Assembly (NCBI GenBank): GCA_964447765.1
Contig: CAYUTO010000003.1
Location: 8,919-72,918 of the forward strand
DNA: 64,000 nt
Reading direction: 5' to 3'
DNA from: an uncultured Gammaproteobacteria bacterium
GTDB lineage: Bacteria > Patescibacteriota > Patescibacteriia > Magasanikbacterales > UBA922
The notes under the pieces were generated by a model. That model made no database searches. It worked only from the letters and a program-made list of their open reading frames with translations, and was not told the DNA's origin. Numbering within the stretch: the stretch's first letter is position 1; each line of letters opens with the position of its first letter. This document shows, piece after piece, positions 31,261-31,656 of this stretch. Position numbers and translations under genes: made by a program.

Positions 31261-31304
31261 GGAGAGGTGTCTGAGCCCTGCCTGCCGGCAGGCAGGGGTT
31301 GAAG
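31261..31304 (+). repeat. Duplicated 5' end of tRNA-Ser (nt 1-24) interrupted by a 20-nt perfect palindrome
   Basis: GGAGAGGTGTCTGAGC + CCTGCCTGCCGGCAGGCAGG + GGTTGAAG; the identical 16-mer and 8-mer are contiguous in the intact tRNA at 31567..31590. Confidence 0.7.
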
Positions 31305-31319
31305 TCTATAAAATGGTAT

Positions 31320-31562
31320 ATGTACTACGTTTACTTTCTTAAAAGCGAGAAGGACGGTAAAATGTATATAGGTAGAACGAATGATATTATGAGACGTCTG
31401 TCAGAACACAATAGCGGACAAGTTTCTGCAACAAAATCACGCCGTCCGCTTGTATTGCTCGGATATGAGACATATGCAACAGAATCTGAAAGCGTGAGTG
31501 CAGAACGTGAATGGAAAAAAGGTTACAGAAGAGAAGAGTTAAAACGAAAGTTTAAAATATAA
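31320..31562 (+). CDS. GIY-YIG nuclease-family protein (UPF0213/YhbQ-like, 80 aa)
   Basis: MYYVYFLKSEKDGKMYIGRTNDIMRRLSEHNSG is the GIY-YIG motif; the track ORF starts at a TTG (31299) inside the tRNA-fragment repeat, so the ATG at 31320 is preferred. Confidence 0.75.
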   Translation: MYYVYFLKSEKDGKMYIGRTNDIMRRLSEHNSGQVSATKSRRPLVLLGYETYATESESVSAEREWKKGYRREELKRKFKI

Positions 31563-31566
31563 ACAT

Positions 31567-31656
31567 GGAGAGGTGTCTGAGCGGTTGAAGGTGCCGCTCT
31601 CGAAAAGCGGTGTTGCCGAAAGGTAACCGAGGGTTCGAATCCCTCCCTCTCCGCCA
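31567..31656 (+). tRNA. tRNA-Ser (anticodon CGA), CCA encoded
   Basis: Acceptor GGAGAGG/CCTCTCC; anticodon stem CCGCT/AGCGG with loop CTCGAAA; long variable arm TGTTGCCGAAAGGTAACC; T-arm GAGGG-TTCGAAT-CCCTC; discriminator G then CCA. Confidence 0.9.

Follow-up and report, generated by a model that had tools for sequence, protein, structure and literature searches.

A probable homing-type GIY-YIG nuclease cassette in the 5' part of a tRNA-Ser(CGA) gene

In a 64-kb stretch of Patescibacteria DNA (contig CAYUTO010000003.1; the whole of this stretch is called the window below), the gene for tRNA-Ser(CGA) is preceded by an orphan copy of its own first 24 nucleotides (nt), which is split by a perfect 20-nt palindrome, here called PAL, and a small gene for a GIY-YIG nuclease lies between this fragment and the intact tRNA. 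We consider this region to be, probably, a small selfish cassette of the homing type, formed around a nuclease of the UPF0213/Slx1-like kind, that entered the tRNA gene in its 5' part and kept the tRNA whole by duplication. Related genomes with and without the cassette, the divergence of the cassette compared with that of its flanks, and the recurrence of the same architecture at many other tRNA genes provide the evidence for this reading.

An insertion in a tRNA gene

Orthologous loci in relatives were found via the divergently transcribed Wzy_C gene. Four relatives (L210 to L213, with Wzy_C 90, 82, 81, and 70% identical to that of the window) have a promoter and then tRNA-Ser(CGA), without fragment, PAL, or nuclease gene, and therefore the window carries a 306-bp insertion. 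At these empty sites a promoter-like TTGAC-N17/18-TAGTAT is followed after 19 to 27 nt by the intact tRNA, and the TTGAC and TAGTAT columns are invariant across the window, the occupied locus L002 described below, and L210 to L213. The corresponding site of the window is the only promoter-like one on the + strand of positions 31000 to 31800. We infer that the tRNA gene was driven from this site before the insertion and that the site now stands ahead of orphan fragment, nuclease gene, and tRNA alike. Because the orphan fragment is joined to the promoter and leader as the tRNA is at the empty sites, it can be taken as the original 5' end of the gene.

In one parse of the insertion, PAL takes up 20 bp, the duplicated AT and tRNA nt 1 to 24 take up 26 bp, and the other 260 bp are spacer, open reading frame (ORF), and 2 further nt (Table 1). 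The first part of the fragment, ATGGAGAGGTGTCTGAGC, comprises 2 leader nt (AT) and tRNA nt 1 to 16; it has two matches in the window, with a start-to-start spacing of 306, and none in 100 shuffles. The second part, GGTTGAAG (tRNA nt 17 to 24), recurs at a spacing of 286, that is, 306 minus 20, and PAL sits between the two, in what would be the D-loop. PAL occurs once in the window, even when 3 mismatches are allowed, and together with its flanking C and G (22 nt, 82% GC) it forms the longest perfect palindrome of the window and the only G+C-rich one. The tRNA, which was placed by ARAGORN and scores 50 bits with the Rfam tRNA model, is set off from the nuclease stop codon by only 4 nt. The spacer tctataaaatggtat is not conserved in cassettes at other tRNAs.

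Table 1. Features of the tRNA-Ser(CGA) locus in the window
Feature	Positions	Strand	Basis or remark
Putative promoter, sigma-70-like TTGACG-18 nt-TAGTAT	31211..31240	+	Sole + strand promoter-like site; function predicted
Orphan fragment part 1 (AT + tRNA nt 1-16), original 5' end of gene	31259..31276	+	Exact copy of 31565-31582; contiguous with promoter and leader
PAL CCTGCCTGCCGGCAGGCAGG	31277..31296	.	Unique in window; discrete boundaries; upstream of all 10 close homologs
Orphan fragment part 2 (tRNA nt 17-24, GGTTGAAG; to nt 26 in L002)	31297..31304	+	Repeat spacing
Untranslated spacer tctataaaatggtat, at the left end of the inserted DNA that is not tRNA	31305..31319	+	Homologous to L002 spacer
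GIY-YIG nuclease gene, 80 amino acids + stop, catalytic domain only, UPF0213/YhbQ (Slx1-like) type	31320..31562	+	PF01541
Intact tRNA-Ser(CGA), CCA encoded	31567..31656	+	ARAGORN, Rfam
306-bp insertion as compared with empty sites (several parses are equivalent; one is given)	31277..31582	+	Alignment of window and L002 to four empty loci

The same arrangement was present in other assemblies: a separate Logan assembly (L001) is identical to the window, and two further samples (L002 and L003) contain a diverged version, so the arrangement is not an assembly artifact. The contigs of these three independent assemblies (L001, L002, and L003) all end inside or just past tRNA-Ser(CGA), which fits strain-level variation or repeats downstream.

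The sequence confirms the original prediction that a tRNA 5' end had been duplicated and split by a palindrome, with the nuclease gene between the fragment and the tRNA, and the empty loci bear out its suggestion that the fragment marks an insertion event. No relative was found in which the fragment was missing and the GIY-YIG gene retained; fragment, PAL, and gene are either present together (L002/L003) or all absent (L210 to L213).

The tRNA itself differs little between occupied and empty sites. Over all 90 nt the window tRNA is identical to those of L211 and L212 except for a C16/T16 polymorphism, which is present among the empty sites also; the tRNA of L210 has two more differences from that of the window, and that of L213 has several, located in its variable arm and its T arm. 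At position 16 the orphan fragment of each occupied genome has the same base as the local tRNA. This agreement suggests either duplication of the local sequence or gene conversion between the copies, and we do not choose between the two.

Spread into the same site and to other tRNA genes

The occupied genome of L002/L003 is a distant relative, with the same cassette at the same tRNA and a homologous junction. Between the window and L002 the nuclease genes are 90% identical in nucleotides and 91% in amino acids, compared with 57% for the flanking Wzy_C protein and 67% for Polysacc_synt. At third codon positions, in this one genome pair, identity is 0.79 in the nuclease gene and 0.42 to 0.43, near saturation, in the two flanking genes, a contrast that points to horizontal transfer into the same site. 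Judged by these divergences, the cassette is much younger than the split of the two hosts, and it is absent from closer relatives; such a combination is the pattern expected for homing into a conserved site.

Close homologs of the window protein were found in unrelated neighborhoods, each directly upstream of a co-oriented tRNA gene (Ser-GGA, Cys, or Ser-TGA), and the start codon of each is preceded by the first 5 to 16 nt of that tRNA, then PAL, and then the next 8 to 16 nt of the same tRNA. More broadly, the cassette architecture occurs at Ser-GGA, Ser-TGA, Ser-GCT, Cys, Lys, Leu, Arg, Gln, Val, and Trp tRNAs, in unrelated contexts and also in viral contigs. A scan of metagenome contigs that was based on the protein, and was thus unbiased for PAL and tRNA, yielded 80 loci with 75 evaluable ORFs. 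A co-oriented tRNA starts between -30 and +100 nt from the stop codon in 28 of these 75 homologs, where typical tRNA gene density leads to an estimate of about 0.2, and a further 10 have a same-strand tRNA within 400 nt upstream. At many of the scanned loci an orphan 5' tRNA copy stands before the ORF, ending anywhere from nt 10 to about nt 60 and broken by GC-rich hairpins. The right junction is tight: the ORF either stops within a few nucleotides of tRNA position +1 or overlaps the start of the tRNA by as much as 21 nt. All orphan fragments of at least about 16 nt have some GC-rich hairpin, and two fragments of 10 nt have none. Because the orphan fragments agree with the local tRNA on either side of the hairpin, we rejected the idea that tRNA sequence of a donor travels with the cassette into new tRNA species.

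Invasion can be repeated at one tRNA. Two different cassettes, each with its own orphan fragment, stand in tandem before a single tRNA-Leu in L187, and in L002 a second, older, promoter-proximal orphan fragment with no ORF lies upstream of the PAL-bearing one; both are cases of re-invasion. In L004 (6380-6700) the geometry is a mirror image, with a different GIY-YIG gene that follows tRNA-Ser(GGA) and is itself followed by a copy of the tRNA 3' end, GAATCCCTCCCCCTCCGCA.

Related tRNA sequences show further peculiarities. Degenerate tRNA 3' pieces with hairpins lie downstream of a tRNA in L006 (6390-6500). In L156 and L157 the D-loop of the functional tRNA-Cys, which adjoins a GIY-YIG gene, reads AGCAGTA and so lacks the near-universal G18G19, and the orphan fragment retains AGTGGTA; this change could be an escape of the target site or mere drift.

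The nuclease

The ORF of the window matches the Pfam GIY-YIG model PF01541 with 58.1 bits against a cutoff of 22.6 (E = 1.1e-15), over residues 8 to 78 of 80. All 25 aligned homologs begin at a Met equivalent to the ATG at 31320 (M-[YFH]-x-x-Y...), so this ATG is the true start and the protein has 80 amino acids. The original prediction had also pointed to a TTG-extended frame that begins inside the tRNA fragment (31299), which is literally true but is a by-product of listing ORFs and has no biological weight. Residues Y5, Y16, G18, R26, H30, and E62 are invariant in the 26 sequences and include the catalytic positions (GIY Tyr, YIG Tyr, Arg, and Glu). A profile of the family matched the solved UPF0213 proteins BH0048 (1zg2, E = 1.8e-14) and EF2693 (1ywl, E = 6e-13), and also eukaryotic SLX1 (E = 3e-6 to 1e-4); on these similarities the protein is assigned to the minimal prokaryotic "Slx1-like" UPF0213 branch of the GIY-YIG superfamily. 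It consists of the catalytic domain alone, with no extra or DNA-binding domain. The ratio of nonsynonymous to synonymous substitution rates (dN/dS) between the window and L002 is 0.09, and the gene is maintained under purifying selection.

Other collections added little to this assignment. PADLOC models gave no full-length match, only matches to a GIY motif of 20 to 30 residues with E values of 6e-5 or worse, and membership in a defense system was rejected since these matches stay at the level of the motif. NCBIfam gave only subthreshold matches for the nuclease, and PHROGs gave weak ones (E of at least 4e-5), mostly over 30 to 40 residues, to homing-endonuclease families. A tblastn search of phage GenBank records returned only matches of 36 to 40% identity, in unannotated Listeria phage records, and was uninformative.

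The palindrome and other hairpins

PAL stands 26 to 50 nt upstream of the ATG in all 10 distinct proteins that are at least 57% identical to the window protein, is found with none of the 64 at 41 to 55% identity, and recurs in a second, distant group at 30 to 40% identity. A second type of hairpin, of 36 to 38 nt (CCTGCCCGCATTGC...GCAGGCGGG), belongs to another nuclease clade and splits the tRNA 5' fragment at nt 10 to 12, both before ORF1 of L187 (1430-1500) and in the older, ORF-less fragment of L002 (5841-5900). Hairpin type follows nuclease clade. In the Ser and Cys cases PAL lies between nt 16 and 17, just 5' of the conserved GG of the D-loop, the exception being L004, where it follows nt 5; in other tRNAs it occupies other positions of the D-arm or the anticodon loop.

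When the palindrome was sought elsewhere, as the original prediction had proposed, it was present in at least 120 genome stretches from more than 100 genomes (L010 to L129; one genome per species, loci of 26 to 72% GC), where arithmetic over 596 Gb gives about 1 by chance, and also in 35 viral contigs (L214 to L248). The genome matches span Patescibacteria, Bacteroidota, Omnitrophota, Planctomycetota, Proteobacteria, Nitrospirota, and Chloroflexota and include cultured isolates. A sequencing or assembly artifact was rejected as the source of PAL, given its presence in isolates and in the metagenome-assembled genomes of many projects and its association with nuclease clade. A locally evolved terminator was also rejected, as PAL has no T-run, has discrete 20-nt bounds, and is identical across genomes of 26 to 72% GC.

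Several of its properties suggest that PAL could itself be mobile. It is a discrete 20-mer, with extension of the palindrome past 20 nt at the level of chance (0.29 versus 0.25), and it is mostly intergenic, with 33% of copies inside long open frames compared with 82% of random positions. Copies nested within other copies occur in L029, L035, L068, and L074. PAL is enriched near tRNA genes, about 12 of the 120 loci among the matches listed lying near a tRNA gene without a nuclease gene, and GIY-YIG is the only protein family that recurs in its vicinity. Together with its occurrence in so many bacterial genomes of such different composition and in viral contigs, these features favor a tentative alternative, drawn by analogy with repetitive extragenic palindromic (REP) sequences and their REP-associated tyrosine transposases (RAYTs), in which PAL would be an independently mobile hairpin moved by the GIY-YIG nuclease, the nuclease gene beside PAL would make up the autonomous copy, solitary copies would be nonautonomous, and the orphan fragment would be a favored, harmless landing site. 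We regard this as possible but doubtful. A GIY-YIG gene lies within 400 nt of only about 4 of the 120 genomic loci among the matches listed, PAL occurs once in the 64-kb window and once in every 12-kb GIY-YIG locus, which is below REP-like density, and no mechanism is known by which a GIY-YIG nuclease would paste a 20-nt hairpin.

Solitary copies may also be relics of cassettes that lost the ORF. Structures made of fragment, PAL, a spacer of 7 to 60 nt, and an intact tRNA, with no ORF, were found in L015 (about 4410-4500, minus strand), L012, L053, and L030; the intact tRNA is cognate to the fragment in L015 and L053, and the fragment of L030 apparently comes from a different tRNA. These structures could have arisen through loss of the nuclease gene, or the insertion of PAL could itself be accompanied by a duplication. 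Direct repeats of at least 9 nt flank 8% of solitary PALs versus 2%, a difference too weak to define a target duplication. The idea that solitary PALs sit in the loops of larger hairpins was rejected, as bridging pairs numbered 5.0, the same as at random positions of the same loci (5.0).

Two viral loci were unusual. In L238 (2240-2330) PAL lies at the place of the variable loop in a tRNA-Met(CAT) that resembles an initiator and is complete in all other respects, and across it ARAGORN predicts a tRNA of 92 nt. The palindrome may imitate a long extra arm, so that the tRNA could still be used. The same tRNA-Met is truncated past PAL in L215 (8576-8660).

A different alternative, which corresponds to the processing or decoy structure suggested in the original prediction, is that fragment and PAL act at the level of RNA, as an element in the 5' untranslated part of the nuclease mRNA that would supply a protective hairpin or a processing site or would block pairing with the 3' half of the tRNA. 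The constant location of PAL shortly before the start codon of all close homologs, its position downstream of the sole promoter-like site, and the restriction of hairpins to the longer orphan fragments agree with such a role, as does the predicted fold of the PAL region, which has a minimum free energy of -28.7 kcal/mol. That fold is of modest significance (z = -2.2), however, with 7 of 200 shuffles folding equally well. Moreover, one transition variant of PAL (GGTAGG/CCTACC) is recurrent and common, in either orientation, and no compensatory variation was seen; exact conservation of sequence across phyla exceeds what an RNA stem needs, and most copies of PAL are not beside a nuclease gene. 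As the explanation of fragment and palindrome this is rather improbable, although it can be combined with a homing cassette.

A possible route of homing

The invasion of tRNA genes by a homing nuclease cassette, the explanation that we favor, can be drawn as follows. The cassette would have entered after about nt 24 to 26 of the original tRNA gene, with the first 24 nt duplicated behind the nuclease gene. The tRNA promoter would read through orphan fragment, nuclease gene, and tRNA as one transcript, so that the cassette borrows a strong tRNA promoter; this co-transcription is proposed because there is no other promoter-like site and only 4 nt lie between stop codon and tRNA. Cleavage by RNase P at the tRNA 5' end would then separate mRNA from tRNA. 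Spread would start when the nuclease cuts unoccupied tRNA genes, and because the enzyme is Slx1-like and tiny and has no DNA-binding domain, we propose that it recognizes a structure in the D-arm region and not a long sequence. Repair would copy the ORF from the occupied allele into other genomes, using the conserved tRNA sequence as homology, and if it were one-sided or involved a template switch, the resident 5' part would stay upstream of the ORF while a complete tRNA would follow it. The insertion has no terminal inverted repeats, and the length of duplicated tRNA varies from about 10 to 60 nt between loci, unlike the products of insertion sequences or transposons. A scan of 30900-31900 with Rfam E values found only the tRNA above gathering score and no ribozyme.

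In such a scheme the reading of PAL that we prefer, although it is somewhat less likely than not, is that it serves to break up the orphan copy, which would then be no target, no partner for deletion by recombination, and no tRNA-like transcript, and that the insertion is stabilized in this way. A bolder proposal, which we think unlikely, is that the nuclease and the hairpins of its clade (PAL in this case) form one mobile system not recognized before, in which the enzyme recognizes and cuts DNA structures of two kinds: the cloverleaf or D-arm into which a tRNA gene can fold, and the hairpin or cruciform made by its palindrome. If this were true, cutting would drive both the copying into tRNA genes, with its gene-restoring duplication, and the scattering of PAL through genomes and phages; it would provide a function for the large UPF0213 family, and a very small nuclease would be known together with its 20-bp cognate site.

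A number of observations weigh against a homing cassette. The tRNA at occupied sites is the same as at empty ones, and were the tRNA sequence alone the target, the host copy would stay cleavable; in the occupied allele PAL splits the orphan copy, but the intact tRNA, on which immunity would depend in that case, is unchanged. Recombination between the direct repeats could have removed the cassette from the four closer relatives, in which case its absence there would mean loss and not separate gain. PAL is set off from the ORF by 8 to 16 nt of local tRNA sequence, at a position that varies by tRNA, and therefore one simple insertion event does not explain PAL and ORF together. Moves between tRNA species need a fresh duplication of local sequence each time, for whose origin we offer no derivation. 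Characterized GIY-YIG homing endonucleases have a separate DNA-binding domain, whereas this protein of 80 amino acids has no such module for specificity, and no UPF0213 gene, E. coli yhbQ included, is known to be mobile. About half of the sampled homologs have no tRNA inside 100 nt.

Remaining alternatives and the downstream region

It is very improbable that the GIY-YIG gene is an ordinary resident host gene, co-transcribed with the tRNA, and that the fragment arose by local tandem duplication without any mobility. In its favor, proteins of the UPF0213 family are widespread on chromosomes, and the gene is under purifying selection. A resident gene, however, would not account for presence and absence among close relatives, synonymous divergence far below that of the flanks, different cassettes in tandem at one tRNA, or an architecture repeated at many tRNAs in unrelated contexts and viral contigs.

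Least probable of all is that the fragment was left behind when a larger genomic island integrated at the tRNA or was excised from it, and that this island brought in the accessory genes at 31.7 to 38 kb: gene content downstream of tRNA-Ser(CGA) does differ in every relative examined, and in L212 (the 81% relative) a serine recombinase gene abuts the tRNA 3' end, but the 306-bp insertion fully explains the 5' duplication, relatives with empty sites have variable downstream genes yet no fragment, L002 and the window share the start of the downstream glyoxalase gene (as far as the L002 contig extends), the 19-mer and 25-mer of the tRNA 3' end have no second match in the window at up to 3 mismatches, and none of the nine ORFs scanned at 31.7 to 38 kb is an integrase or recombinase. 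The original prediction had suggested both that the insertion brought in this region and that a repeat of the tRNA 3' end might bound it; the inserted DNA is instead the 306-bp cassette, and the window holds no such repeat.

The recombinase of L212 (1290-2903) is a large serine recombinase with Resolvase and Recombinase domains, beyond which lie helix-turn-helix (HTH) genes, and from its position it follows that tRNA-Ser(CGA) is also an integration site on its 3' side. In the window, two genes for DUF2975 membrane proteins flank a small HTH_26 regulator gene (32472-33654, minus strand); the 3' ends of the two share a 59-nt repeat of 73% identity (32470-32528 and 33167-33225), which looks like a local duplication in a variable region. 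Among the other loci, L005 has a LAGLIDADG-like ORF between tRNA-Cys and tRNA-Leu (6369-7037), and in L006 to L008 ARAGORN reports a tRNA with anticodon UUA, which reads the stop codon UAA, beside or overlapping a serine recombinase gene (2503-2576).

Comparison with known systems

If the region is a homing cassette, it gives a concrete role, that of a selfish invader of tRNA genes, to at least one branch of the UPF0213/YhbQ genes, whose function is unknown. It would also explain tRNA pseudo-fragments and contig breaks beside tRNA genes in metagenome assemblies of candidate phyla. PAL is identical from Patescibacteria to Bacteroidota, Planctomycetota, Proteobacteria, and phage contigs, and such conservation calls for a protein partner; should the 80-amino-acid nuclease be that partner, few known nucleases specific for a site or structure would be as small. 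The full-text literature that we searched, with the palindrome string included, contains no prior description of the arrangement, and as most subscription journals lie outside this coverage, an earlier description is possible.

In structure, the closest analog is the integrase-borne island that restores a tRNA 3' end. Islands and prophages of this kind restore the 3' part of the gene, depend on a tyrosine or serine recombinase, are kilobases long, and have a fixed att repeat. Like them, the cassette targets a tRNA gene, supplies the displaced part, and leaves a partial tRNA repeat. Unlike them, it duplicates the 5' part, over about 10 to 60 nt depending on the locus, consists of about 260 bp plus repeats, and encodes no recombinase; a gene-restoring duplication at the 5' end is the opposite of what integrase-driven islands produce.

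In function, the closest analog is the "intronless homing" of free-standing GIY-YIG genes such as segB of phage T4, which lies in the phage tRNA cluster and drives its preferential inheritance (PMC2330249). Both are GIY-YIG genes free of introns and inteins that adjoin a conserved tRNA gene and are present or absent among relatives, and both would be inherited by copying into genomes without the gene, as the divergence contrast suggests for the cassette. However, Seg proteins exceed 200 amino acids and have a DNA-binding domain, whereas the cassette protein is an 80-amino-acid catalytic domain alone. Seg genes are intergenic and involve no duplication, whereas the cassette lies inside a tRNA gene with a 5' duplication and a hairpin in the orphan copy. 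The Seg setting is a phage, and that of the cassette is a bacterial chromosome, in Patescibacteria and other phyla.

The protein resembles UPF0213/YhbQ members in sequence family, size, and catalytic residues. The minimal prokaryotic "Slx1-like" branch was described by Dunin-Horkawicz et al., with one member fused to a TrmH-like tRNA (Gm18) D-loop methyltransferase (PMC1564403). In the literature searched, no function or mobility has been assigned to the UPF0213 branch, and that paper makes no mention of a link to tRNA genes, of orphan fragments, or of hairpins.

As a short, GC-rich, intergenic palindrome with one copy beside the gene of a candidate mobilizing enzyme, PAL is reminiscent of REP/RAYT systems and of the GC clusters of fungal mitochondria. 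REPs, in contrast, differ from species to species and are present in many copies per genome, and RAYTs belong to the HUH (Y1) enzymes, whereas PAL is identical across phyla and sparse and has a GIY-YIG partner. In rRNA genes of bacteria of the candidate phyla radiation, nonintron insertions that encode GIY-YIG proteins are reported, and insertions in those genes lie at the tops or bases of stem-loops (PMC11270868). These, together with the intervening sequences of 23S rRNA, resemble the cassette in host group, in protein superfamily, and in the placement of an ORF within a structured RNA gene without a ribozyme. They stay within the rRNA gene, whereas the cassette leaves a separate intact tRNA and the interrupted copy is a dead fragment.

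None of the systems compared unites a nuclease reduced to its catalytic domain, a 5' duplication that restores the gene, and, within the orphan copy, a hairpin specific to the clade. For an endonuclease gene, the cassette would represent a third way of residing in an essential gene for a structured RNA, in which neither a self-splicing intron nor an intein but a duplicated piece keeps the gene whole.

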